Source: a virus
UHGV virus genome: UHGV-1912862
DNA length: 17,842 nt
Strand: one strand, 5' to 3'
Position 1 is the first letter of the stretch, and the number at the start of each line of letters is the position of its first letter. Below, piece by piece: positions 1-17,842 of the stretch. The notes under the pieces are model-generated. The model ran no database searches and was not told the origin of the DNA. It saw only the letters and a program-made list of their open reading frames with translations. The translations under genes were made by a program, and so were the position numbers.

Positions 1-2400
1 GAAGCCTTCGGGAAGCTGACCACAGACCCGACGTCGGGGCTGACGGCGATGGCGCGCCAGTTCCATAACGTGACGGCGGAGCAGATTGCGTATGTTGCTC
101 AGTTGCAGCGTTCCGGCGATGAAGCCGGGGCATTGCAGGCGGCGAACGAGGCCGCAACGAAAGGGTTTGATGACCAGACCCGCCGCCTGAAAGAGAACAT
201 GGGCACGCTGGAGACCTGGGCAGACAGGACTGCGCGGGCATTCAAATCCATGTGGGATGCGGTGCTGGATATTGGTCGTCCTGATACCGCGCAGGAGATG
301 CTGATTAAGGCAGAGGCTGCGTTTAAGAAAGCAGACGACATCTGGAATCTGCGCAAGGATGATTATTTTGTTAACGATGAAGCGCGGGCGCGTTACTGGG
401 ATGACCGTGAAAAGGCCCGTCTTGCGCTTGAAGCCGCCCGAAAGAAGGCTGAGCAGCAGACTCAACAGGACAAAAATGCGCAGCAGCAGAGCGATACCGA
501 AGCGTCACGGCTGAAATATACCGAAGAGGCGCAGAAGGCTTACGAACGCCTGCAGACACCGCTGGAGAAATATACCGCCCGCCAGGAGGAACTGAATAAG
601 GCACTGAAAGACGGAAAAATCCTGCAGGCAGATTACAACACGCTGATGTCGGCGGCGAAAAAGGACTATGAAGCGACGCTGAAAAAGCCGAAGCAGTCCG
701 GCGTGAAAGTGTCTGCGGGCGATCGTCAGGAAGACAGTGCTCATGCTGCCCTGCTGACGCTTCAGGCAGAACTCCGGACACTGGAGAAGCATGCCGGAGC
801 GAATGAGAAAATCAGCCAGCAGCGCCGGGATTTGNNNNNNNNNNGCTGCAGACGCCGCTGGAGAAATATACCGCCCGTCAGGAAGAACTGAATAAGGCCC
901 TGAAAGACGGAAAAATCCTGCAGGCAGATTACAACACGCTGATGGCGGCGGCGAAAAAGGACTATGAAGCGACACTGAAAAAGCCGAAACAGTCCGGCGT
1001 GAAGGTGTCTGCAGGAGAGCGTCAGGAAGACAGTGCTCATGCCGCCCTGCTGACGCTTCAGGCAGAACTCCGGACGCTGGAGAAGCATGCCGGAGCGAAT
1101 GAGAAAATCAGCCAGCAGCGCCGGGATTTGTGGAAGGCGGAAAGTCAGTTCGCGGTACTGGAGGAGGCGGCGCAACGTCGCCAGCTGTCCGCACAGGAGA
1201 AATCCCTGCTGGCGCATAAAGATGAGACGCTGGAGTACAAACGCCAGCTGGCTGCACTTGGCGATAAGGTCACGTATCAGGAGCACCTGAACGCGCTGGC
1301 GCAGCAGGCGGATAAATTCGCACAGCAGCAACGGGCAAAACGGGCCGCCATTGATGCGAAAAGCCGGGGGCTGACTGACCGGCAGGCAGCGAAGGAAGCC
1401 ACGGAACAGCGCCTGAAGGAGGAGTATGGCGATAATCCGCTGGCGCTGAATAACGTCATGTCAGAGCAGAAAAAGACCTGGGCGGCTGAAGACCAGCTTC
1501 GCGGGAACTGGATGGCAGGCCTGAAGTCCGGCTGGAGTGAGTGGGAAGAGAGCGCCACGGANNNNNNNNNNAAAAAACCGGGGGCTGACTGACCGGCAGG
1601 CAGCGCGGGAAGCCACGGAACAGCGCCTGAAGGAACAGTATGGCGATAATTCTCTGGCGCTGAATAACGTCATGTCAGAGCAGAAAAAGACCTGGGCGGC
1701 TGAAGGCCAGCTTCGCGGGAGCTGGATGGCAGGCCTGAAGTCCGGCTGGAGTGAGTGGGAAGAGAGCGCCACGGACAGTATGTCGCAGGTAAAAAGTGCA
1801 GCCACGCAGACCTTTGATGGCATTGCACAGAATATGGCGGCGATGCTGACCGGCAGTGAGCAGAACTGGCGCAGCTTCACCCGTTCCGTGCTGTCCATGA
1901 TGACAGAAATTCTGCTTAAGCAGGCAATGGTGGGGATTGTCGGGAGTATCGGCAGCGTCATTGGCGGTGCTGCCGGTGGTGGCGCATCAGTGTCAGGCGG
2001 TACAGCCATTCAGGCCGCTGCGGCGAAATTCCATTTTGCGACCGGAGGATTTACGGGAACCGGCGGCAAATATGAGCCAGCGGGGATTGTTCACCGTGGT
2101 GAATTTGTCTTCACGAAGGAGGCAACCAGCCGGATTGGCGTAGGAAATCTTTACCGGCTGATGCGCGGCTATGCCACCGGTGGTTATGTCGGTGGCACCG
2201 GAAGTCCGGCGCAAATGCGGCGTTCAGAGGGTATCAGATTTGAGCAGAACAACAACGTGGTGATTCAGAACGACGGTACGAATGGTCTGCCAGGTCCACA
2301 GATGCTGAAGGCAGTGTATGACATGGCCCGCAAGGGTGCCCGTGATGAAATTCAGGCACAGATGCGCGATGGTGGTCTGTTCTCCGGAGGTGGACGATGA
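1..2400 (+). CDS. H: Tail tape-measure protein (lambda gpH-like), 5'-truncated by the window; frame broken by scaffold joins at 835-844 and 1562-1571
   Basis: Frame is open from nt 1. Translation is Ala/Gln/Lys-rich and coiled-coil-like with a Gly-rich segment (GGAAGGGASVSGG). Stop TGA 2398-2400 overlaps the M start (ATGA). Sits directly upstream of M-L-K-I-J. Confidence 0.9.
835..844. other. Scaffold join (10 N); 845-1130 re-reads about 549-834
   Basis: N-run followed by a near-identical copy with substitutions. Confidence 0.85.
1562..1571. other. Scaffold join (10 N); about 1574-1775 re-reads about 1360-1561
   Basis: N-run followed by a near-identical copy with substitutions. Confidence 0.85.
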
Positions 2401-2726
2401 AGACCTTCCGCTGGAAAGTGAAACCCGGTATGGATGTGGCTTCGGCCCCTTCCGTCAGGAAAGTGTGCTTTGGTGATGGCTATTCCCAGCGAGCGCCTGC
2501 CGGGCTGAATGCCGACCTGAAAACGTACAGCGTGACGCTTTCTGTTCCCCGTTGGGAGGCCACGGCGCTGGAGTCGTTTCTGGCTGAGCACGGGGGCTGG
2601 AAAGCCTTTCTGTGGACGCCGCCTTATGAGTGGCGGCAGATAAAGGTGACCTGCGCAAAATGGTCGTCGCGGGTCAGTATGCTGCGTGTTGAGTTCAGCG
2701 CAGAGTTTGAACAGGTGGTGAACTGA
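2397..2726 (+). CDS. M: Tail tip protein M (lambda gpM-like), 109 aa
   Basis: ORF MKTFRWKVKPGMDVASAP...EFEQVVN. GGAGG Shine-Dalgarno at 2383-2387. Stop overlaps L start (TGATG). Length and position match lambda M. Confidence 0.92.
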   Translation: MKTFRWKVKPGMDVASAPSVRKVCFGDGYSQRAPAGLNADLKTYSVTLSVPRWEATALESFLAEHGGWKAFLWTPPYEWRQIKVTCAKWSSRVSMLRVEFSAEFEQVVN

Positions 2727-3680
2727 TGCAGAATATCCGGCAGGAAACACTGAATGAATGCACCCGTGCGGAGCAGTCGGCCAGCGNNNNNNNNNNGATA
2801 TCCGGCAGGAAACACTGAATGAATGCACCCGTGCGGAGCAGTCGGCCAGCGTGGTGCTCTGGGAAATCGACCTGACAGAGGTCGGTGGAGAACGTTATTT
2901 TTTCTGTAATGAGCAGAACGAAAAAGGTGAGCCGGTCACCTGGCAGGGGCGACAGTATCAGCCGTATCCCATTCAGGGGAGCGGTTTTGAACTGAATGGC
3001 AAAGGCACCAGTACGCGCCCCACGCTGACGGTTTCTAACCTGTACGGTATGGTCACCGGGATGGCGGAAGATATGCAGAGTCTGGTCGGCGGAACGGTGG
3101 TCCGGCGTAAGGTTTACGCCCGTTTTCTGGATGCGGTGAACTTCGTCAACGGAAACAGTTACGCCGATCCGGAGCAGGAGGTGATCAGCCGCTGGCGCAT
3201 TGAGCAGTGCAGCGAACTGAGCGCGGTGAGTGCCTCCTTTGTACTGTCCACGCCGACGGAAACGGATGGCGCTGTTTTTCCGGGACGTATCATGCTGGCC
3301 AACACCTGCACCTGGACCTATNNNNNNNNNNCTTCGTCAACGGAAACAGCGACGCCGATCCGGAGCAGGAGGTGATCAGTCGCTGGCGCATCGAGCAGTG
3401 CAGCGAACTGAGCGCGGTCAGTGCCTCCTTTGTACTGTCCACACCGACGGAAACGGACGGCGCTGTTTTTCCGGGACGTATCATGCTGGCCAACACCTGC
3501 ACCTGGACCTATCGCGGTGACGAGTGCGGTTATAGCGGTCCGGCTGTCGCGGATGAATATGACCAGCCAACGTCCGATATCACGAAGGATAAATGCAGCA
3601 AATGCCTGAGCGGTTGTAAGTTCCGCAATAACGTCGGCAACTTTGGCGGCTTCCTTTCCATTAACAAACTTTCGCAGTAA
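2726..3680 (+). CDS. L: Tail tip protein L (lambda gpL-like); contains two scaffold joins (2787-2796, 3322-3331) with re-read blocks, true length about 232 aa
   Basis: Translation MQNIRQETLNECTRAEQSASVVLWEIDLTEVGGERYFFCNEQ... ending with a Cys cluster (RGDECGY...DKCSKCLSGCKF) as in gpL. After subtracting the re-reads the length is about 700 nt. Confidence 0.92.
2787..2796. other. Scaffold join (10 N); 2798-2851 re-reads 2733-2786
   Basis: N-run followed by a near-identical copy. Confidence 0.85.
3322..3331. other. Scaffold join (10 N); 3332-3512 re-reads 3141-3321
   Basis: N-run followed by a near-identical copy with substitutions. Confidence 0.85.
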
Positions 3681-3684
3681 TCCC

Positions 3685-4428
3685 ATGACAGAGACAGAAT
3701 CAGCGATTCTGGCGCACGCCCGGCGATGTGCGCCAGCGGAGTCGTGCGGCTTCGTGGTAAGCACGCCGGAGGGGGAAAGATATTTCCCCTGCGTGAATAT
3801 CTCCGGTGAGCCGGAGGCGTATTTCCGTATGTCGCCGGAAGACTGGCTGCAGGCAGAAATGCAGGGTGAGATTGTGGCGCTGGTCCACAGCCACCCCGGT
3901 GGTCTGCCCTGGCTGAGTGAGGCCGACCGGCGGCTGCAGGTGCAGAGTGATTTGCCGTGGTGGCTGGTCTGCCGGGGGACGATTCATAAGTTCCGCTGTG
4001 TGCCGCATCTCACCGGGCGGCGCTTTGAGCACGGTGTGACGGACTGTTACACACTGTTCCGGGATGCTTATCATCTGGCGGGGATTGAGATGCCGGACTT
4101 TCATCGTGAGGATGACTGGTGGCGTAACGGCCAGAATCTCTATCTGGATAATCTGGAGGCCACAGGGCTGTATCAGGTGCCGTTGTCATCAGCACAACCG
4201 GGCGATGTGCTGCTGTGCTGTTTTGGTTCATCGGTGCCGAATCATGCCGCCATTTACTGTGGTGATGGCGAGCTGCTGCACCATATTCCTGAACAACTGA
4301 GCAAACGAGAGAGGTACACCGACAAATGGCAGCGACGCACACACACCCTCTGGCGTCACCGGGCATGGCGCGCATCTGCCTTTACGGGGATTTACAACGA
4401 TTTGGCCGCCGCATCGACCTTCGTGTGA
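3685..4428 (+). CDS. K: Tail tip assembly protein K (JAMM/MPN plus NlpC/P60-like), 247 aa; alternative internal start at 3829 would give 199 aa
   Basis: ATG at 3685 (MTETESAILAHARR...). JAMM motif HSHPGGLPWLSEAD (HxHx7Sx2D) and downstream Cys/His consistent with NlpC/P60. Its 3' end overlaps the I start out of frame by about 100 nt. Confidence 0.9.
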   Translation: MTETESAILAHARRCAPAESCGFVVSTPEGERYFPCVNISGEPEAYFRMSPEDWLQAEMQGEIVALVHSHPGGLPWLSEADRRLQVQSDLPWWLVCRGTIHKFRCVPHLTGRRFEHGVTDCYTLFRDAYHLAGIEMPDFHREDDWWRNGQNLYLDNLEATGLYQVPLSSAQPGDVLLCCFGSSVPNHAAIYCGDGELLHHIPEQLSKRERYTDKWQRRTHTLWRHRAWRASAFTGIYNDLAAASTFV

Positions 4429-5155
4429 AAACGGGGGCTGAAGCCATCCGGGCACTGGCCACACAGCTCCCGGCGTTTCGTCAGAAACTGTGCGACGGCT
4501 GGTATCAGGTACGGATTGCCGGGCGGGACGTCAGCACGTCCGGGTTAACGGCGCAGTTACATGAGACTCTGCCTGATGGCGCTGTGATTCATATTGTTNN
4601 NNNNNNNNCGCACTGGCCACACAGCTCCCGGCGTTTCGTCAGAAACTGAGCGACGGCTGGTATCAGGTACGGATTGCCGGGCAGGATGTCAGCACGTCCG
4701 GATTAACGGCGCAGTTACATGAGACTCTGCCTGATGGCGCTGTGATTCATATTGTTCCCAGAGTCGCCGGGGCCAAGTCAGGTGGTGTATTCCAGATTGT
4801 CCTGGGAGCAGCCGCCATTGCCGGATCATTCTTTACCGCCGGAGCCACCCTTGCAGCATGGGGGGCAGCCATTGGGGCCGGTGGTATGACCGGCATCCTG
4901 TTTTCTCTCGGTGCCAGTATGGTGCTCGGTGGTGTGGCGCAGATGCTGGCACCGAAAGCCCGGACGCCCACAGCGACCAGCACGGATAACGGTAAGCAGA
5001 ACACGTATTTCTCTTCACTGGATAACATGGTTGCCCAGGGCAATGTTCTGCCTGTTCTGTACGGTGAAATGCGCGTGGGGTCACGCGTGGTTTCTCAGGA
5101 GATCAGCACGGCAGACGAAGGGGATGGTGGTCAGGTTGTGGTGATTGGTCGCTGA
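4326..5155 (+). CDS. I: Tail tip assembly protein I (lambda gpI-like); contains scaffold join 4599-4608 and a re-read, true length about 222 aa
   Basis: MAATHTHPLASPGMARICLYGDLQRFGRRIDLRVKTGAEAIRALATQLPAFRQK... followed by a Gly/Ala-rich hydrophobic C-terminal half ...GDGGQVVVIGR. Stop TGA 5153-5155. Confidence 0.9.
4599..4608. other. Scaffold join (10 N); 4609-4756 re-reads 4451-4598
   Basis: N-run followed by a near-identical copy with substitutions. Confidence 0.85.
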
Positions 5156-5173
5156 TGCAAAATGTTTTATGTG

Positions 5174-5199
5174 AAACCGCCTCCGGGCGGTTTTGTCGT
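5174..5199 (+). promoter_or_regulatory. Perfect 8-bp hairpin (AAACCGCC-tccg-GGCGGTTT) followed by a T-rich tract in the I-J intergenic spacer; possible attenuator or RNA-stability element
   Basis: Inverted repeat read directly from the sequence. A second copy with the same stem and loop tgcg lies at 6064-6089 in the re-read block. Confidence 0.35.
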
Positions 5200-5215
5200 T
5201 TATGGAGCGTGAGGA

Positions 5216-5665
5216 ATGGGTAAAGGCAGCAGTAAGGGGCATACCCCGCGCGAAGCAAAGGACAACCTGAAGTCCACGCAGCTGCTGAGTGTGATCGATG
5301 CCATCAGTGAAGGGCCGATTGAAGGTCCGGTGGATGGATTAAAAAGCGTGCTGCTGAACAGTACGCCGGTGCTGGACAGTGAGGGGAATGCCAATATATC
5401 CGGCGTCACGGTGGTGTTCCGGGCAGGTGAGCAGGAGCAGACTCCGCCGGAGGGGGTTGAATCCTCCGGTTCCGAGACGGTGCTGGGTACGGAAGTGAAA
5501 TATGACACGCCGATCACCCGCACCATCACGTCGGCAAACATCGACCGTCTGCGCTTTACCTTCGGTGTGCAGGCACTGGTGGAAACCACCTCAAAGGGGG
5601 ACAGGAATCCATCGGAAGTCCGCCTGCTGGTTCAGATACAGCGTAACGGTGGCTGGGTGACGGAA
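5216..5665 (+). CDS. J: Host-specificity protein J, 5' fragment (first allele copy, cut by scaffold join 5666-5675)
   Basis: MGKGSSKGHTPREAKDNLKSTQLLSVIDAISEGPIEGPVDGLK... is about 96 percent identical to 6106-6555. GAGG Shine-Dalgarno at 5211-5214. Confidence 0.8.
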
Positions 5666-5675
5666 NNNNNNNNNN
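5666..5675. other. Scaffold join (10 N); 5676-6555 re-reads 4786-5665 (I 3' end, I-J spacer, J 5' end)
   Basis: N-run followed by an 880-nt diverged copy at constant offset 890. Confidence 0.85.
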
Positions 5676-6045
5676 CGTATTCCAGATTGTCCTGGGAGCT
5701 GCCGCCATTGCCGGATCATTCTTTACTGCCGGAGCCACCCTTGCAGCATGGGGGGCAGCCATTGGGGCCGGTGGTATGACCGGCATCCTGTTTTCTCTCG
5801 GTGCCAGTATGGTGCTCGGTGGTGTGGCGCAGATGCTGGCACCGAAAGCCAGAACTCCCCGTACACAGATAACGGATAACGGCAAACAAAACACCTATTT
5901 CTCCTCACTGGATAACATGGTTGCCCAGGGCAATGTTCTGCCCGTTCTGTTCGGTGAAATGCGCGTGGGGTCACGTGTGGCATCTCAGGAGATCAGTACA
6001 GCTGATGAAGGTGATGGTGGTGAAATCGTGGTGATTGGTCGCTGA
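5676..6045 (+). CDS. I: Tail assembly protein I, 3' fragment (second allele copy; re-read of 4786-5155 with substitutions)
   Basis: Encodes ...APKARTPRTQITDNGKQNTYFSSLDNMVAQGNVLPVLFGEMRVGSRVASQEISTADEGDGGEIVVIGR, against TPTATSTDNG...YGEM...GQVVVIGR in copy one. Confidence 0.8.
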
Positions 6046-6105
6046 TGGAACATGTTTTATATGAAACCGCCTGCGGGCGGTTTTGTCGTTTATGGAGCAT
6101 GAGGA

Positions 6106-11127
<5,022 letters not shown>

Positions 11128-11146
11128 ATTTTATAACCCATATACG

Positions 11147-11172
11147 GGCACCAGAAATGGTGCCTTTTTTTT
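11147..11172 (+). terminator. Rho-independent terminator after J (GGCACCA-gaaa-TGGTGCC then T8)
   Basis: 7-bp GC-rich stem, GAAA tetraloop and T8 run, 20 nt after the J stop. Confidence 0.65.
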
Positions 11173-11193
11173 GCAGAAAAGCGAGAGGTAATT

Positions 11194-11730
11194 ATGCGTA
11201 AATTATGTGCTGTTATTCTGTCCACAGTAGTCTGGCTGGTCGCCGCTGGTACGCCAGCGAGCGCAGCAGAGCATCAGTCCACACTAAGCGCCGGGTATCT
11301 TCAGACCCATACTGATATGCCCGGCAACGATGACCTGAAGGGCATTAACGTGAAATACCGTTATGAATTTACGGACACGCTGGGGCTGGTGACGTCATTC
11401 AGTTATGCCAATGCCAAAGATGAGCAAAAAACGCATTACAGCGATACCCGCTGGCATGAAGATTCAGTGCGTAACCGCTGGTTCAGCATGATGGCGGGGC
11501 CGTCTGTACGCGTGAATGAATGGTTCAGTGCTTATGCGATGGCAGGTGTGGCTTACAGCCGTGTTTCGACGTTCTCCGGGGATTATCTCCGCGTAACTGA
11601 CAACAAGGGGAAAACGCACGATGTGCTGACCGGAAGTGATGACGATCGCCACAGCAACACGTCTCTGGCGTGGGGAGCTGGCGTGCAGTTTAACCCGACC
11701 GAATCCGTGGCCATTGATATTGCTTATGAA
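11194..11730 (+). CDS. lom: Lom-family outer membrane protein (Ail/OmpX/Lom beta-barrel), allele copy A, 3' end lost at scaffold join 11731-11740
   Basis: MRKLCAVILSTVVWLVAAGTPASAAEHQSTLSAGYLQTHTDMPGNDDLKGINVKYRYEFTDTLG... Signal peptide plus beta-strand pattern. GAGAGG Shine-Dalgarno at 11183-11188. Confidence 0.8.
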
Positions 11731-11740
11731 NNNNNNNNNN
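11731..11740. other. Scaffold join (10 N); 11741-12332 re-reads about 11140-11730 (terminator plus lom)
   Basis: N-run followed by a diverged copy; the lom signal-peptide region differs markedly. Confidence 0.85.
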
Positions 11741-12395: not shown

Positions 12396-12422
12396 TTAGC
12401 CAGGTAACACAGTGTTATGACA

Positions 12423-12449
12423 GCCCGCCGGTTCAGGCGGGCTTTTTTG
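12423..12449 (+). terminator. Rho-independent terminator after lom (GCCCGCC-ggttcag-GGCGGGC then T6)
   Basis: 7-bp GC stem and T-run, directly followed by GGAG (12451-12454) and the stf ATG at 12460. Confidence 0.65.
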
Positions 12450-12459
12450 TGGAGTGGAT

Positions 12460-14817
12460 ATGGCAGCAGTAAAAATCTCAGGTGTGCTGAAAGATGGTGC
12501 GGGAAAACCAATACAGAACTGCACTATTCAACTGAAGGCAAAGCGTAACAGCACCACTGTACTGGTGAACACGGTGGCCTCTGAAAATCCGGATGAAGCC
12601 GGGCGTTACAGCATGGACGTTGAGTATGGCCAGTATAGCGTTATCCTGCTGGTTGAAGGTTTTCCGCCTTCACATGCCGGGATCATTACCGTCTATGAAG
12701 GTTCCAGACCAGGTACGCTGAATGATTTTCTCGGTGCCATGACGGAAGATGATGTCATGCCGGAGGCATTGCGTCGTTTTGAGGCAATGGTGGAAGAAGC
12801 GGCACGCAACGCCGAAGCCGCCTCTCAGAGCGCAGCGGTGGCAAAGAAATCCGAAACTGCAGCGGCATCATCGAAGAACGCGGCGAAAACCTCAGAAACG
12901 AATGCAGCTAACAGCGCACAGGCGGCAGCGTCCTCGCAGACTGCATCGGCAAACTCCGCGACAGCAGCCAAAAAATCAGAAACCAACGCGAAAAACAGCG
13001 AGACAGCCGCAAAGACGAGCGAAACCAACGCAAAGTCCAGCCAGACGGCAGCGAAGACCAGCGAAACGAATGCCAAAGCCAGTGAAACTGCGGCAAAAAA
13101 CAGCCAGGTTGCAGCAGCCCAAAGCGAGAGCGCGGCAGCCGGTTCTGCGACTTCAGCAGCTGGATCAGCAACTGCTGCGGCTAACAGCCAGAAAGCTGCG
13201 AAGACGAGTGAAACTAACGCAAAGTCCAGCCAGACGGCAGCGAAGACCAGCGAAACGAATGCCAAAGCCAGCGAAACTGCGGCGAAAAGCAGTCAGGATG
13301 CAGCAGCCGAAAGCGAGAGTGCTGCAGCTGGTTCTGCAACAGCGGCAGCTAATAGCCAAAAAGCTGCAAAAACCAGTGAAACTAACGCAAAGGCGAGCGA
13401 AACAAAAGCAGCAGCCAGCGAGACAGAAGCAACGTCAGCCGCAACAAGAGCAGAGAATGCAGCCCGGATTGCAGAAGATGCCGCTGATCCTGCTTCTGTC
13501 CCTCCGCTTCCTGATATCTGGCTACCCTTGAATGATTCTCTGGAAGCGATAACAGGGTATGCGCCGGGGTATAAAACAATAACCATCGGCAGCGATGAAA
13601 TCACTGTGCCAGTTAATGGCATATGCCAATTTAGCCGGGCTTCATCTGCAACGTATATTGATAAGTCCGGGCATATTACCGTGGCAGGTAATAACGTTCC
13701 TCGTTTTGAAAAATATGGTTTGCTGATAGAGAATCAGCGAACAAACATGTTCGTAAATAGTTTTAATCCTGATGCGTGGAATAAAAGCGGTGGTATATCT
13801 GTAACATCATCAACAGATGAATTTGAGTTTAAATATGGACGTTTCACGGTAGGAAGCGATATAGCAGGAACGACAACAGGGAGAAATATATGCACAGTTG
13901 CTGGTAACAAAGGCATAGATGTGACTGGCGATGATCAGTACAGTAAAGGTCCGTATGTTACCGCGTCGTTCAGGGTAAGAAGTGATCTCAATGTTCGCGC
14001 ACGTATCCGTTTTGAACGGTATAACTCGGAAGGATACACCTTCCTTTGCGACGCCTATTTGTCATTACAGACCCATGAACTACAAATTACTGGTGGCAAT
14101 GCCCAGCTATTAACAGCAAACTTTGAAATCGACCCTGGTAGTGGATGGATATATTTTCAGGCAACACTGAAATGTCTGCCAGAATGGGGAATGGTTGGTA
14201 CGCAGCTGCAAATTGCAGCCGACAGAGCTGTGGGAGCTTTTGCAACAGGTGACTGGATAGAAGTAACCACCCCGCAATTCGAGTATGGTGCTTGTGCAAC
14301 TTCCTTCATCATAACGACAACAGAGCCAGCGACTCGTGCATCAGATTTATGTAAATTTCCGCTGATGAAAAATATGTATACCATGCCTTTTACGTTCATG
14401 GTGGAAGTCCATAAAAACTGGTTTATTTCTCATAATGCTGCACCGCGTGTCATTGATTCAGAAAATCACCAGTCCGGAGGCCCATTTATTATGGGGTTTG
14501 GTTCTTCTGGAACTATCAGTCAGGACGGTTATTCGTATTGCGATATAGGCGGGGCTAACCGACGTGTATATGAATCATGCGGAGTAAGGGATCTCGTTAT
14601 GGGATTCAGGGTTAAGGCTGACGGCATGACATGCTCATTTGCAAATAAGCATATAAGCGCTGAAACAAAAACAGTATGGAAATATATTCGTGAAGCAGCC
14701 GTGATTCGTATCGGGGGGCAAACGACGACAGGATTACGACACCTTAATGGTCATATAAAAAACCTCCGTTTCTGGAACAGAGCATTGTCAGATACGCAGC
14801 TTAAGGAATACGTATAA
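12460..14817 (+). CDS. stf: Side tail fibre protein Stf: conserved N-terminal attachment domain, Ala/Ser/Thr-rich repeat shaft, AT-rich C-terminal receptor-binding domain with a LamG-like terminal motif
   Basis: From ATG 12460: MAAVKISGVLKDGAGKPIQNCTIQLKAKRNSTTVLVNTVASENPDEAGRYSMDVEYGQYSVIL... (lambdoid Stf N-terminus). Repeats KTSETNAK(A/S)S(E/Q)TAAK. C-terminus ...GHIKNLRFWNRALSDTQLKEYV. The ORF-track start at 12454 is GTG; I prefer ATG 12460. Confidence 0.85.
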   Translation: MAAVKISGVLKDGAGKPIQNCTIQLKAKRNSTTVLVNTVASENPDEAGRYSMDVEYGQYSVILLVEGFPPSHAGIITVYEGSRPGTLNDFLGAMTEDDVMPEALRRFEAMVEEAARNAEAASQSAAVAKKSETAAASSKNAAKTSETNAANSAQAAASSQTASANSATAAKKSETNAKNSETAAKTSETNAKSSQTAAKTSETNAKASETAAKNSQVAAAQSESAAAGSATSAAGSATAAANSQKAAKTSETNAKSSQTAAKTSETNAKASETAAKSSQDAAAESESAAAGSATAAANSQKAAKTSETNAKASETKAAASETEATSAATRAENAARIAEDAADPASVPPLPDIWLPLNDSLEAITGYAPGYKTITIGSDEITVPVNGICQFSRASSATYIDKSGHITVAGNNVPRFEKYGLLIENQRTNMFVNSFNPDAWNKSGGISVTSSTDEFEFKYGRFTVGSDIAGTTTGRNICTVAGNKGIDVTGDDQYSKGPYVTASFRVRSDLNVRARIRFERYNSEGYTFLCDAYLSLQTHELQITGGNAQLLTANFEIDPGSGWIYFQATLKCLPEWGMVGTQLQIAADRAVGAFATGDWIEVTTPQFEYGACATSFIITTTEPATRASDLCKFPLMKNMYTMPFTFMVEVHKNWFISHNAAPRVIDSENHQSGGPFIMGFGSSGTISQDGYSYCDIGGANRRVYESCGVRDLVMGFRVKADGMTCSFANKHISAETKTVWKYIREAAVIRIGGQTTTGLRHLNGHIKNLRFWNRALSDTQLKEYV
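13031..13400 (+). repeat. Imperfect in-frame tandem repeats (about 170-190 nt units) within the stf shaft
   Basis: caaagtccagccagacggcagcgaagaccagcgaaacgaatgccaaagcc recurs at 13031 and 13220. Shorter KTSETNAK motifs span about 12890-13400. Confidence 0.6.
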
Positions 14818-15086
14818 TGCGAGATATAACATTACGATTCGATAACAGAGAACAGTTTAACGCAATTGTATATGACAGTGGCCTGTTCAGTCTTGAAGAA
14901 GAAAACGGGGTTCTTGTTGATGTTATTGGCTGCATTATCGATTACGAGGAGCCAGAAAACGAAAGATGTACAGGCATTGATCGCGGTGGTTTTTTCGTAA
15001 ACATGAGGATTGTTGATAGCAGTAAAAACATATCTTCTTTAATGCCTTTCATTACGACAGATCAGCATGTAAGGACATGGGCTTAA
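14817..15086 (+). CDS. Hypothetical small acidic protein (89 aa), translationally coupled to stf (TAATG overlap)
   Basis: ATG 14817 overlaps the stf stop. AT-rich like its neighbours. No motif recognised: MRDITLRFDNREQFNAIVYDSGLFSLEEENGVLVDVIGCIIDYEEPENERC... Confidence 0.5.
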   Translation: MRDITLRFDNREQFNAIVYDSGLFSLEEENGVLVDVIGCIIDYEEPENERCTGIDRGGFFVNMRIVDSSKNISSLMPFITTDQHVRTWA

Positions 15087-15098
15087 TGGAGTAAGACA

Positions 15099-16139
15099 AT
15101 GGTTACAAAAACAGTAATTCCTGATGACATCAAAACGCTAAAATCCGATGTTAGTAAACTAAAAACTGATCAAGGAAGCTATGCAACAAAATCATATGTA
15201 GACAATAAAACAACATGGAATAGTTATTGCAATGTAATCTATGATCAAAAGGCATTGCCGACCACTGGAACTATATTTAGCGGTAAGATTCACTTGTCAA
15301 ATAAGACAGGAGAAACCGAAAACGCTTATAGTGAGATGTACACCAGAAAAAATATTGACGGTACAAAAGATACAATGACAAGGATTGTCACACACAATGG
15401 AACAAAAGGTATCTTTTGGGATTTTAGCGATCTTTACGGCGGAACATTAATTTTTCCAGGCAGTGATGGTTACCTTAAGATGGGGAACTGTCTCATGTCG
15501 TATGGTGTGCGGGGAAGTAACGCGCTTATTAAGTTTGACTGCACAGACACATTACAAATCAAATATGCCAATCATGGGTCAACCATGACATTAAACACAC
15601 AGGGGACCGCTCATTCTGGCGCTACTACTAGTTTGTGGGGTAACTCTACCCGTCCGGTTGTATATGAAGTTGGTGCTGATGGTGGCGCGTATATGTTCTA
15701 TGCGCAGAAAAATACCGATAACACCTATATGTTAAGCGTTAATGGTGCATGTCATGCCACCGCATTTAACCAGCATTCCGACCGGGATCTGAAAGACAAC
15801 ATTCAGGTGATCGATAATGCAACCGACCGCATCCGTAAAATGAACGGCTATACATACACGCTTAAAGAAAACGGTATGCCCTATGCAGGTGTCATTGCAC
15901 AGGAAGCTCTGGAAGCAATCCCAGAAGTTGTCGGTTCCGCAATGAAATATCAGGACGGTGCAAGCGGATCGGAAGGTGAAGAAGGTGAACGTTATTACAC
16001 AGTAGATTATTCTGGTGTTACTGGCTTGCTTGTTCAGGTAGCCAGAGAGTCAGACGACAGAATAACAGTACTGGAAGAAGAAAACGCAGAATTAAGGCAA
16101 AGATTATCTGCAATTGAGGCGACGCTTGCGTCTAAATAA
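15099..16139 (+). CDS. Tail fibre/tailspike-like protein with C-terminal intramolecular chaperone (peptidase S74 / endosialidase-chaperone-type) domain, 346 aa
   Basis: GGAGTAAG Shine-Dalgarno before ATG 15099. C-terminal region ...NQHSDRDLKDNIQVIDNATDRIRKMNGYTYTLKE..YAGVIAQEALEAIPEVV...LEEENAELRQRLSAIEATL carries the SDxxLK and G(V/F)IAQE hallmarks plus a terminal coiled coil. AT-rich. Confidence 0.75.
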   Translation: MVTKTVIPDDIKTLKSDVSKLKTDQGSYATKSYVDNKTTWNSYCNVIYDQKALPTTGTIFSGKIHLSNKTGETENAYSEMYTRKNIDGTKDTMTRIVTHNGTKGIFWDFSDLYGGTLIFPGSDGYLKMGNCLMSYGVRGSNALIKFDCTDTLQIKYANHGSTMTLNTQGTAHSGATTSLWGNSTRPVVYEVGADGGAYMFYAQKNTDNTYMLSVNGACHATAFNQHSDRDLKDNIQVIDNATDRIRKMNGYTYTLKENGMPYAGVIAQEALEAIPEVVGSAMKYQDGASGSEGEEGERYYTVDYSGVTGLLVQVARESDDRITVLEEENAELRQRLSAIEATLASK

Positions 16140-16180
16140 TATTAAGGGCTATGCGCCCCGTTTTATTGGGTAGGATGAAA

Positions 16181-16474
16181 ATGGATATAACACCTTTTCT
16201 TCATGCGCTTTGTGCTGTGGCTGCGCAGGTACTGGTTGGTCTTTTTACCGGAAACTGGGCTTACGGGGCGATAGCCGGTTGTACATTCTTCATTGCGCGG
16301 GAACACACCCAGGCAGAATATCGCTGGATTGAAATGTTCGGGCATTGCAAGCGGATTAACATGCCGTGGTGGGGCGGTTTTGATCCGCGTGTTTGGGATG
16401 TGGCAAGCCTGATAGATTTTGCTGTGCCGGTGGTGGCGTGTCTGCTGGTCTGGCTGTTGGTTAATCGTGGGTGA
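16181..16474 (+). CDS. Small polytopic inner-membrane protein (about 97 aa, three hydrophobic segments), function unknown
   Basis: AGGA at 16172-16175 then ATG 16181 (the ORF track begins at 16151). Hydrophobic stretches FLHALCAVAAQVLVGLFTG, AYGAIAGCTFFIA, LIDFAVPVVACLLVWLLV. G+C is host-like, unlike the upstream cassette. Confidence 0.5.
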   Translation: MDITPFLHALCAVAAQVLVGLFTGNWAYGAIAGCTFFIAREHTQAEYRWIEMFGHCKRINMPWWGGFDPRVWDVASLIDFAVPVVACLLVWLLVNRG

Positions 16475-16484
16475 AAAAAGGTGA

Positions 16485-16604
16485 GCTGTATATGCAACGG
16501 AGGAAGAAATCTCGTTGCTGGAAGCATGGAAAAAGTATCGGGTATTGCTGAACCGTGTTGATACGTCAACTGCACAGGATATTGAATGGCCAGCACTGCC
16601 GTAG
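16485..16604 (+). pseudogene. tfa: 3' remnant of a tail fibre assembly gene (tfa); only the last ~40 codons remain
   Basis: Frame-3 translation [39 protein letters not shown]-stop matches the conserved Tfa C-terminus (..[33 protein letters not shown]..). An in-frame stop lies at 16482-16484 and there is no start codon. Confidence 0.7.
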
Positions 16605-16701
16605 GGTAAAACATATAAATTCTATAATTAGATGTATCTTTCCATTTACGGCAAGGAAGGGGGCTTGGAAGACGTAAAGCATCTCACACCGAGATTATTT
16701 T

Positions 16702-17292
16702 TTATATGTCAGGTGTCTGAAGTTTTGCTTTGGCTCTTAAAATGGTTTGCCGCGAGGTTTTGAATTCCCGGGCAATGGCACTTATACTTACACCTGACTT
16801 AATTCGTTCGAATACCACCTGTTTCTGTTCTTCATTTAACACAGGTGGTCGACCAAAACGTTTCCCTGCGCCGCGGGCTCTTACTATCCCGGAATGAGTG
16901 CGTTCAAGTAAAAGGTCTCGTTCAAATTCAGCGACTGCTGAAATTACTTGCATCATCATTTTTCCTGTTGGACTGGTCAGGTCAATGCCCCCCAATGCTA
17001 AGCAATGCACTCTGATACCTGTTTCGGTCAGTTGTTCCACTGTTTTCCTGATATCCATTGCATTACAACCAAGGCGATCCAGTTTTGTCACAATCAATTG
17101 ATCACCACATTTCAGGCGAGCAAGCAACCGGTTAAAACCAGGACGCTCACTGGTTGCTGCTGAGCCGCTAATGTGTTCTTCGATTATTTGCTGAGATTTG
17201 ATGTTAAAACCTGCACTTTCGATTTCCCGGCGTTGATTTTCGGTGGTCTGATCCAGCGTTGATATCCGACAGTAAGCAAAAATTCGAGACAT
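16702..17292 (-). CDS. pin: Serine recombinase of the DNA-invertase family (Pin/Gin/Hin-like), 196 aa
   Basis: [20 protein letters not shown]... has the resolvase/invertase N-terminal catalytic motif (Ser11) and a C-terminal HTH ([21 protein letters not shown]). Position after stf/tfa and length 196 aa match the PinR/PinQ arrangement of Rac/Qin prophages as I recall it. Confidence 0.88.
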
Positions 17293-17608
17293 AGTGAGAC
17301 TCTATACGAAATTGGTGTTCATATCATAATGCATCTCAGAAAATAATTATGATTATTTTTGTGCATATTTGTATGTACACGTTCGAAAATAAACGAATGC
17401 GTATGCAACCCCGTAATTTTGGTGAGACCCAAAATCGATTTTGTGAAAAATGGCTTTAACTCGGTTTGTTTTTCGAGTTCCGGGAGGACTCAAGGAAGAA
17501 GAATAGTGTTGCGTGTTATTTTAACCAGATTTCAAGTTGTTTGGTCGTGGAAAAGTGGAGCAAAATGTTGTTAAAGTGGAAAAATGATAAAAAAGTAAGT
17601 TTATTATA

Positions 17609-17842
17609 TTACATTTTACCATTTAAATTTTGGTTGTCTTTAAGAACTGATATCGCTGTTTGTAATAATTCTTTGTTATCCAGCCATGATTTTTTCTTTA
17701 TGTTTCCTTCAATGTAATCAAGCAATGTTCTGGTATTGATAGGTCTTCCCTGTTTTGCTACTTCCACTACAGCATCCCCTAGGATAATTCTTACTTCAGG
17801 AAGCTGCGCAGGGAACCACTTTAGGGTGTCTTTTGATTTCAT
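17609..17842 (-). CDS. Small protein (77 aa), YdfK/YnaE-like by synteny with pin
   Basis: Complete ORF MKSKDTLKWFPAQLPEVRIILGDAVVEVAKQGRPINTRTLLDYIEG...; the start codon coincides with the window edge. AT-rich. The identity rests on recalled Rac/Qin gene order (pin next to ynaE/ydfK), not on a search. Confidence 0.5.
   Translation of the reverse strand: MKSKDTLKWFPAQLPEVRIILGDAVVEVAKQGRPINTRTLLDYIEGNIKKKSWLDNKELLQTAISVLKDNQNLNGKM

Follow-up and report, generated by a model that had tools for sequence, protein, structure and literature searches.

The 17,842-nucleotide stretch of viral DNA analysed in this work (hereafter, the window) harbors, at positions 16181..16474, a genuine gene under purifying selection, whose 97-residue product is a full-length member of PHROG 1443. 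This family has already been catalogued (PHROG, RefSeq), with its function undescribed, with no Pfam or NCBIfam model and with no structure. The product should be a small integral inner-membrane protein with three predicted helices, and the gene is an accessory one (moron-type), carried in slots known for morons, conversion or defence genes. It is tentatively proposed, with somewhat less than even confidence, that the protein acts on a conserved component of the envelope, most likely in superinfection exclusion at the inner membrane.

The gene and the protein it encodes

The mechanical list of open reading frames reports a frame on the plus strand that starts at 16151 and ends at 16474. The start was assigned by comparing 86 alleles from E. 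coli and its phages, which represent three types of upstream junction, and the ATG at 16181 is the sole start common to all of them. A good Shine-Dalgarno sequence is present at each of the three junctions; the one of the window is reported in Table 1, and its place is taken by AAAGGAGG in the other two types. An identical 97-residue product is present in RefSeq (WP_021533787.1), under the name "hypothetical protein". Since the ratio dN/dS is 0.14 over 39 distinct full-length alleles (mean dN 0.017, mean dS 0.124), the frame is a genuine gene under purifying selection. Its G+C content (52.7%) is that of the window as a whole (mean 52.8%), and the neighbouring genes range from 38.9% (89-residue ORF) and 41.7% (346-residue fibre) to 44.8% (pin) and 48.5% (stf), so that the host-like composition pointed out in an earlier note on this DNA was borne out; part of the G+C excess is accounted for by the codons for Ala, Gly, Trp, Arg and Pro, i.e., by the amino acid content of a membrane protein.

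Table 1. Position of the gene, of the segments of its product and of the neighbouring features in the window.
Feature	Position	Strand	Evidence
Stf side tail fibre, 787 aa	12454..14817	+	ORF list, homology
89-aa ORF, phrog_1361, between fibre genes	14817..15086	+	PHROG match
346-aa tail fibre with C-terminal Peptidase_S74 (intramolecular chaperone)	15099..16139	+	PF13884 E = 6e-14, phrog_4563
Short G+C-rich hairpin between fibre gene and ORF	16145..16159	.	Hairpin scan, allele comparison
Shine-Dalgarno-like TAGGA	16171..16175	+	5 nt before ATG 16181; read from sequence
CDS of the 97-aa PHROG 1443 protein	16181..16474, incl. stop codon	+	ORF list, allele comparison, PHROG match, RefSeq
Helix 1, residues 4-23, hydrophobic, invariant His8 and Gln16 (predicted)	16190..16249	+	Hydropathy, AF2, alignments
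Helix 2, residues 26-53 (predicted)	16256..16339	+	Hydropathy, AF2, alignments
Aromatic/charged loop, residues 54-73, FG.GKR.NMPWWGGFD.R.W, invariant R58, P62, W72	16340..16399	+	Alignments, AF2
Helix 3, residues 74-96, hydrophobic, nearly invariant Asp79, invariant Pro83 (predicted)	16400..16468	+	Hydropathy, AF2, alignments
tfa 3' remnant, 111 nt, 36 codons	16494..16604	+	RefSeq annotation of identical DNA, translation
Pin-type serine invertase	16702..17292	-	Pfam Resolvase, HTH_7

The three hydrophobic segments already noticed in the sequence emerge from two analyses that agree with each other. The Kyte-Doolittle profile has its maxima at residues ~5-23, 26-40 (weaker) and 74-95, and the AlphaFold2 model, computed from an alignment of 34 sequences, contains helices at residues 4-23, 26-53 and 74-96 (mean pLDDT 95.7). 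The statement that the protein lacks both a signal peptide and a lipobox was likewise confirmed, since on inspection of the sequence the N-terminus (M-D-I-T-P) has no basic n-region, and the residue preceding Cys11 is a Leu, Cys11 itself being unconserved in the alignments. A protein with three membrane helices and neither of these export signals should therefore stay in the inner membrane.

The comparison of members from Gamma-, Beta- and Alphaproteobacteria and from phages disclosed eleven residues that are invariant throughout the family (H8, R40, E41, Q44, A45, E46, R48, R58, P62, W72 and P83), all of which are present in the window protein, and six nearly invariant ones (Y47, I50, N60, W64, G66 and D79). 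Many of them are embedded in the core motif of the family, (A/G/S)RE-x-(T/A)QAEYRWI..(F/Y)G.G.R.NMPWWGGFD.R.W. Helix 2 is hydrophobic at residues 26-39 and continues as an amphipathic extension at residues 40-53, where the invariant R-E-x-x-Q-A-E-Y-R-W-I is located. At position 56, where a Gly is nearly invariant in the family, the window allele carries a Cys.

With three helices in the protein, its N-terminus must share one face of the membrane with the loop and with the two helix ends that adjoin the loop, i.e., those of helices 2 and 3, and the positions of the helices suggest that His8 and Asp79 lie about one turn inside the bilayer, adjoining R40 and E41. As to which face this is, the raw K+R counts favour a cytoplasmic conserved loop (5.4 vs 1.7), whereas the net charge favours a periplasmic loop with the C-terminus inside (+0.4 vs +1.2), as do also the Arg-rich C-terminal tails and the basic turn between helices 1 and 2 of the alphaproteobacterial members. 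Since the two ways of applying the positive-inside rule disagree, the topology is ambiguous.

The assignment to the family comes from the match to phrog_1443 (unknown function), which aligns residues 1-96 with positions 1-96 of the 97 of the profile (E = 7.4e-58); the other PHROG matches were to three families of unknown function and, at chance level (E = 0.6), to one tail-protein family. At E <= 1, the only Pfam match was PhoR, at chance level (E = 0.11), and no defence family was retrieved from PADLOC-DB; NCBIfam gave no match for the protein, no solved relative was retrieved from the PDB by sequence profile, and Foldseek against the PDB and BFVD returned nothing below E = 0.5 except a 42-residue fragment of the same family. 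In other words, the homology check suggested in the earlier note yielded no characterised housekeeping or structural relative in Pfam, NCBIfam or the PDB, and the protein is well conserved. A few relatives in UniProt are labelled "Ybl63", and all the other members listed by the searches are named "hypothetical"; a literature search (with "phrog_1443", "Ybl63" and combinations of phrases) retrieved no paper on the protein, which is not mentioned in the paper on the Stf of Gifsy-1 either.

As a genome feature, the gene is ordinary and very common. Near-identical DNA is present in 1895 of the 5426 complete E. coli genomes (35%), with a median of two copies, which places the gene among the commonest uncharacterised E. 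coli prophage genes, and it is also present in 70 phage records and in IMG/VR contigs (434 in one search and at least 592 in another). Searches with a single sequence and with a profile of distant members gave 571 and 2101 clusters at 90% identity, respectively, and a profile search retrieved 457 representatives of 50%-identity clusters at E <= 0.001. The members among the matches listed are all stand-alone proteins of ~60-150 residues, mostly 90-130, and all the relatives among these matches share the same length and the invariant motif; no fusion hinting at a function occurs among the 150 listed relatives at 50% identity (63-146 residues). As a protein, it belongs to an unexplored family with no known fold, found in an interesting place.

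Organization of the gene in phages and chromosomes

In the window, the gene lies 41 nt 3' of the stop codon of the S74 fibre gene and 19 nt 5' of the tfa remnant. Neither a promoter nor a clear terminator on its own strand was found for it in the window, and no promoter was found at two further loci (L002 and L143). The hairpin that precedes the gene is weak (15 nt) and was scored on the opposite strand; most of the other alleles of the S74 junction have a better 5-bp stem followed by GTTTTATT, an arrangement that is weakened in the window. Downstream, the tfa fragment is annotated in RefSeq as "tail fiber assembly protein, incomplete, missing N-terminus", and it represents the junction with a Qin/Rac-like pin-ydfK module. 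The Pin invertase appears orphaned, since the inverted-repeat scan found no inverted pair of crossover sites for it, and the idea of an invertible segment was dropped on the same ground. The earlier note had placed the gene where the body of tfa would normally be; this describes the junction correctly, but the gene does not replace tfa, since it also ends fibre cassettes devoid of tfa or pin and thus belongs to the fibre cassette.

In E. coli lambdoid prophages, the relative order of the genes is J, lom, Stf, a phrog_1361 gene of 89-92 codons, an optional S74 fibre gene (234 or 346 residues) and the PHROG 1443 gene, which is followed by variable cargo or by the end of the prophage. In the window and in most of the lambdoid loci, the gene lies 12-41 nt after the tail genes or overlaps their frames. 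The phrog_1361 gene accompanies it in 91 of 141 loci, some of them in prophages of Comamonas and Chelativorans, and the distal part of the window Stf is homologous to the fibres that precede the phrog_1361/PHROG 1443 pair in these prophages; the cassette formed by the fibre distal domain, phrog_1361 and PHROG 1443 is therefore conserved across three classes of Proteobacteria. An S74 fibre gene recognized by HMM, although it is the usual upstream neighbour in E. coli, lies directly upstream in only 68 of 138 loci, and a strict functional tie to S74 fibres was abandoned for this reason. Moreover, the same protein (82-100% identical) is found behind different receptor-binding proteins.

Other phages carry the gene in a variety of settings. 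It follows directly a 939-residue S74 fibre gene in a P2-like Leclercia prophage, and a tail fibre or tailspike is the upstream neighbour in five of the seven divergent viral contigs tested. In the P22-like phage Gally, the gene is located between the tailspike gene and int, with a strong terminator (9-bp stem) and a promoter-like site upstream of it; we take this to be the slot in which P22 has gtrABC and Sf6 has oac. In Aeromonas phage 62AhydR11PP, it is embedded in a block of small early genes at the left end, and in a P2-like contig it lies directly after the portal gene (Q). The gpA-gpQ region of P2-like phages is the old/tin defence hotspot (PMC9122126). In T1-like phages, decayed fragments of the family are found after the S74 fibre gene, the copy of phage 6947 being located after the last fibre gene. 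In many IMG/VR proviruses, the end is reached 3 nt past the gene, which is also kept in a prophage reduced to int-xis and its right end. Finally, the T5-like phage AKFV33 has a fibre gene, phrog_1361, another fibre gene and then a terminator, with no PHROG 1443 homologue, and because of this arrangement the protein appears to be dispensable for the fibre.

The suggestion that the gene is a moron was thus upheld in part. Its accessory slots in unrelated phages, its variable presence and its distinct G+C content speak in favour of it; as to its own signals, no promoter was found at the three loci mentioned above, and a terminator and a promoter-like site precede the gene in Gally. Since in the window, as in most lambdoid loci, the gene follows the late operon closely and no promoter was detected, expression from the repressed prophage is not evident and the classical picture of a moron is weakened for this locus; judging from this arrangement, late or read-through expression would be as likely as prophage expression.

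Stand-alone homologues, 45-65% identical, exist in chromosomal loci without phage genes in Aeromonas and in Sphingomonadaceae. In Aeromonas, the gene is located between a pirin gene, a neighbour that recurs in several species of the genus, and a RIO1-like kinase gene with two lipid A acyltransferase genes. In Sphingomonas sinipercae it lies between pdh and ftsB-eno, in Sphingomonas humi near the genes for KpsF, CMP-Kdo synthetase and Wza, and in Sphingomicrobium 22 nt upstream of a cyclopropane-fatty-acid synthase gene, and in an alphaproteobacterial metagenome contig it overlaps a gene of the DsbA family. These cellular homologues, which share the same invariant site, suggest a further bacterial membrane function still to be discovered.

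Proposed role and alternative readings

According to the proposed role, the protein would act in the host cytoplasmic membrane through an invariant polar cluster lying on one face of it. The predicted members of the cluster are R40, E41, Q44, E46, R48 and R58, contributed by the end of helix 2 and by the aromatic loop, together with His8 and Asp79, which would lie slightly within helices 1 and 3, respectively. The cluster would engage one conserved component of the envelope, possibly a lipid-linked intermediate of the envelope or an inner-membrane protein that phages use for genome entry, and not the receptor to which the neighbouring fibre binds. What the phage would most likely gain is that the lysogen, or the infected cell, is protected from further infection, in the manner of T4 Imm, P22 SieA, HK97 gp15 or DicB and not in that of Cor. 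Indeed, a polar set that is invariant across the family points to one conserved cellular target, or to a small catalytic site, and not to a blocker matched to a receptor-binding protein; a receptor-matched blocker seems unlikely because one protein follows different receptor-binding proteins and because homologues occur in chromosomal loci outside phages.

The example chosen in the earlier note, Cor, had to be given up. Cor, which inactivates FhuA and is known from phi80, N15, T1, HK022 and mEp167, resembles the PHROG 1443 gene in being a small accessory gene located after host-range or fibre genes, and T1-like phages presumably keep cor in a place similar to that of the decayed PHROG 1443 copy of phage 6947. 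However, Cor is exported to act at the outer membrane, whereas the PHROG 1443 protein has three membrane helices, no signal peptide or lipobox and no co-variation with the receptor-binding protein, and the searches of Pfam, PHROGs and PADLOC disclosed no similarity to Cor or to other characterised exclusion proteins. The closer likeness, on account of the proposed site of action, is to small phage or prophage proteins acting at the cytoplasmic membrane. T4 Imm, P22 SieA and HK97 gp15 act there against genome entry; HK97 gp15 is a YebO-like moron located in the tail operon and, like PHROG 1443, it has a homologue in the chromosome. These proteins and DicB differ from PHROG 1443 in that they have another number of helices and no homology to it, and the conservation of PHROG 1443 across bacterial classes is far wider; the Pfam collection holds models for Imm and SieB, and the query matched neither of them. 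DicB acts on ManYZ (PMC6832061). Taken together, the comparisons indicate that the protein is neither a part of the virion nor the holin, and that it is unrelated to Cor and to the other exclusion or defence proteins represented in Pfam, PHROGs and PADLOC, an exclusion function being plausible by analogy with the inner-membrane systems just mentioned.

Should the exclusion reading be correct, the family would contribute a new fold and a new mechanism to the few inner-membrane exclusion factors. The gene recurs, in lambdoid, P2-like, P22-like and Aeromonas phages, at the slots usually taken by exclusion, defence or seroconversion genes, and a block of infection, or a change of the envelope, would affect phage host range, the outcome of phage therapy and serotyping in many clinical strains. 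Several observations weigh against exclusion, among them the close attachment of the gene to the late genes and the ambiguous topology mentioned above. In addition, the chromosomal stand-alone homologues would fit less well with a role directed only at phages than with a cellular function in the membrane, and invariant polar residues in such number are typically found in catalytic or ligand sites rather than in the known small exclusion proteins.

The last two observations lead to the main rival of inner-membrane exclusion, namely that the protein, though very small, is a membrane enzyme or a regulator involved in the metabolism of envelope lipids or glycans. The cellular homologues would then work in the envelope of the bacterium itself, and phages with glycan-binding fibres or tailspikes would carry a copy for lysogenic conversion, by which the surface is remodelled (for example LPS, capsule or undecaprenyl-linked intermediates). 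We regard this as possible, with considerable doubt. The invariant His, Arg, Glu, Gln and Asp residues would be clustered on one face beside a Trp-rich interfacial loop, and the degree of conservation and the very existence of chromosomal copies are in line with it. Some of these copies (Aeromonas, S. humi, Sphingomicrobium and the alphaproteobacterial contig) lie near envelope genes; however, synteny is lacking among the chromosomal neighbourhoods, and most of the envelope genes converge with the gene and are not co-transcribed with it. In phages, the gene usually adjoins those for S74 fibres and tailspikes, whose typical ligands are surface glycans, and its slot in Gally is that of seroconversion genes: P22 gtrABC, Sf6 oac and the epsilon15 polymerase inhibitor gene are located by tailspikes, and their likeness to the Gally gene extends to its coding for a membrane protein. 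Unlike them, the PHROG 1443 protein has no homology to GtrA, GtrB, Oac or glycan-modifying families and, more generally, no similarity to any enzyme family or solved fold; 97 residues are very few for a catalyst, and the same protein is carried by phages of hosts with and without LPS O-antigen, including the rough E. coli strains K-12 and C.

A bolder version of the same idea, which we consider speculative and unlikely, is that PHROG 1443 represents a new and structurally unique class of miniature three-helix proteins common to bacteria and phages, in which the His/Asp/Arg/Glu cluster at the membrane interface would be a catalytic or lipid-headgroup site, and that phages with glycan-binding fibres thereby remodel a conserved pathway of the envelope, or shut it down, at an undecaprenyl-linked or lipid A/Kdo step. 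If a catalytic or lipid-binding reading were true, it would imply a general, receptor-independent form of lysogenic conversion or exclusion in a third of E. coli genomes.

It might also be supposed that the gene is a passenger without a role for the phage, persisting as a marker of the recombination boundary at the 3' end of exchangeable fibre cassettes or at prophage ends. In most E. coli loci, it immediately precedes the variable cargo or the attachment site, and both its position 3 nt from the end of many proviruses and its survival in the prophage cut down to int-xis and the right end are what would be expected of such a marker; its decay to fragments in T1-like phages fits as well. Purifying selection within E. 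coli, invariant residues that hold across the classes of Proteobacteria and the independent acquisition of the gene by unrelated types of phages make this reading quite improbable, however.

Very improbable, too, is that the protein helps, together with the phrog_1361 protein, in the assembly or attachment of side or branched tail fibres. This reading would explain the conservation of the fibre/phrog_1361/PHROG 1443 cassette in gamma-, beta- and alphaproteobacterial phages, the frequent translational coupling of the gene to tail genes and the S74 fibre that lies directly upstream in about half of the loci. It does not explain why T5-like phages have the fibre/phrog_1361/fibre arrangement without the gene, nor why the gene also occurs with P22 tailspikes, by the portal gene, in early regions and alone in chromosomes; to our knowledge, moreover, no tail-fibre chaperone is an integral membrane protein.

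Size and number of helices also recall other small membrane proteins. The immunity proteins of pore-forming colicins have ~96-113 residues and three membrane helices; this likeness and the one to SdhC/D consist of size and helix count only, and both readings were discarded, with no Pfam match at E <= 1 other than the chance one to PhoR for the former and no supporting match for the latter.

The least probable of the readings considered is that of a lysis-timing protein, i.e., a class I holin, an antiholin or a holin modulator. With class I holins of the lambda S105 type, which have about 100 residues, three membrane helices and often a basic C-terminus, the protein shares its length, its three helices, a possible N-out/C-in topology and, in many members, the basic C-terminal tail, but it differs from them in the 33-residue invariant polar loop and in its chromosomal and non-lysis settings, and it has no match to Pfam or PHROG holins. 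A PHROG holin gene follows the gene at one locus (L176), and in prophages of Comamonas, Acidovorax and related bacteria the gene lies directly upstream of, and sometimes overlaps, genes for membrane proteins and an endolysin; the Acidovorax cassette, however, is complete without it, since it comprises a 67-residue two-helix pinholin-like ORF, an endolysin (signal-anchor start, Phage_lysozyme) and nested Rz/Rz1 genes with a lipobox. Lysis genes are not adjacent in the E. coli lambdoid, P2-like, P22-like, Aeromonas and chromosomal settings that were read, and lambda-derived carriers, of which the tail region of one was read, presumably keep the lambda S-R-Rz genes elsewhere. As to the in-frame M-K-M start of the window, which recalls lambda S107/S105, it is found only in alleles of the S74 junction, the other two junctions having a TAA right before ATG-GAT, so that a holin identity was rejected on the comparison of start codons together with the Acidovorax lysis cassette.

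Assembly state of the window

Up to 11740, the window is a scaffold with twelve gaps, each filled by exactly 10 N and bordered by direct repeats of 180-300 nt with 83-97% identity. Because of these gaps with flanking repeats, the tail genes embedded in this region appear broken or duplicated: two J N-termini are present, and lom occurs as two 199-aa copies sharing 80% identity. This region looks like the joined contig ends of separate prophage copies, rather than real biology. From 11741 to its end, the window is gap-free.

Coordinates of the features discussed, in the window and in comparison loci
Sequence	Feature	Position	Description
Window	Scaffold part	1-11740	
Window	J N-termini	5216; 6106	
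Window	lom copies	11194; 11796	
Window	Repeat inside Stf	12955-13332	189-nt tandem repeat, 83% identical
Window	89-aa ORF	14817-15086	phrog_1361, no Pfam match; conserved partner gene
Window	Short fibre, 346 aa	15099-16139	C-terminal Peptidase_S74 self-cleaving chaperone domain
Window	Codon 56 of the membrane-protein gene	16346-16348	Cys
Window	tfa 3' stub, then pin	16494-17292	stub of 36 codons; pin-type invertase gene intact and in the opposite orientation
L146 (CP035330.1)	Reduced prophage	4602-7297	ompW-trp site, one E. coli strain
L002 (Lambda_ev203)	Region with sitABCD	5386-8835	lambda-derived
L005 (phage 6947)	PHROG 1443 remnant	4965-5120	T1-like

Organization of the fibre genes

In other E. 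coli loci, the position of the 346-aa fibre is either occupied by a 234-aa S74 variant or empty; therefore, the S74 fibre inserted at this point, with the 89-aa gene on one side and the membrane-protein gene on the other, is optional. An ISEc8 (IS66-family) element interrupts the 346-aa fibre gene in strain A33.

In E. coli, the phrog_1361 ORF separates Stf from the second (S74-type) fibre, in T5-like phages it is flanked by two lateral-fibre genes (AKFV33 orf136), and in Comamonas and Chelativorans prophages it adjoins the PHROG 1443 gene, i.e., the homologue of the membrane-protein gene. In branched side fibres, the encoded protein may act as an adaptor.

No paired inverted crossover sites were found within 12400-17842, and the pin-type invertase seems to have lost its former invertible fibre segment. 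As for Stf, its tandem repeat encodes a 'SETNAK.S.TAAK' stretch rich in Ala, Ser, Thr, and Lys, and the AT skew is strong over this part of the gene.

The membrane-protein gene in the window and in other loci

At least 90% of the PHROG 1443 members have Gly at position 56 (FG.GKR), where the window allele has Cys (FGHCKR). Since the Cys56 allele is common, being found on 718 contigs, this residue is presumably tolerated.

In T1-like virulent phages, the PHROG 1443 gene is represented only by frameshifted or truncated pieces located after the S74 fibre (as in phage 6947 and BFVD A0A6B9XIW9), which are either not annotated or called as a 42-51-aa ORF. This suggests that the gene arrived in these phages together with the fibre module and is now decaying.

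The prophage in CP035330.1 has been cut down to its two ends: int and xis are followed by about 1 kb in which no gene is called, and then by the 98-aa homologue and the right end; the homologue has been retained despite the loss of all but the prophage ends.

In Lambda_ev203, a complete sitABCD manganese/iron transporter operon is located beyond the PHROG 1443 gene, on the other strand, and is an example of cargo placed just past this gene.
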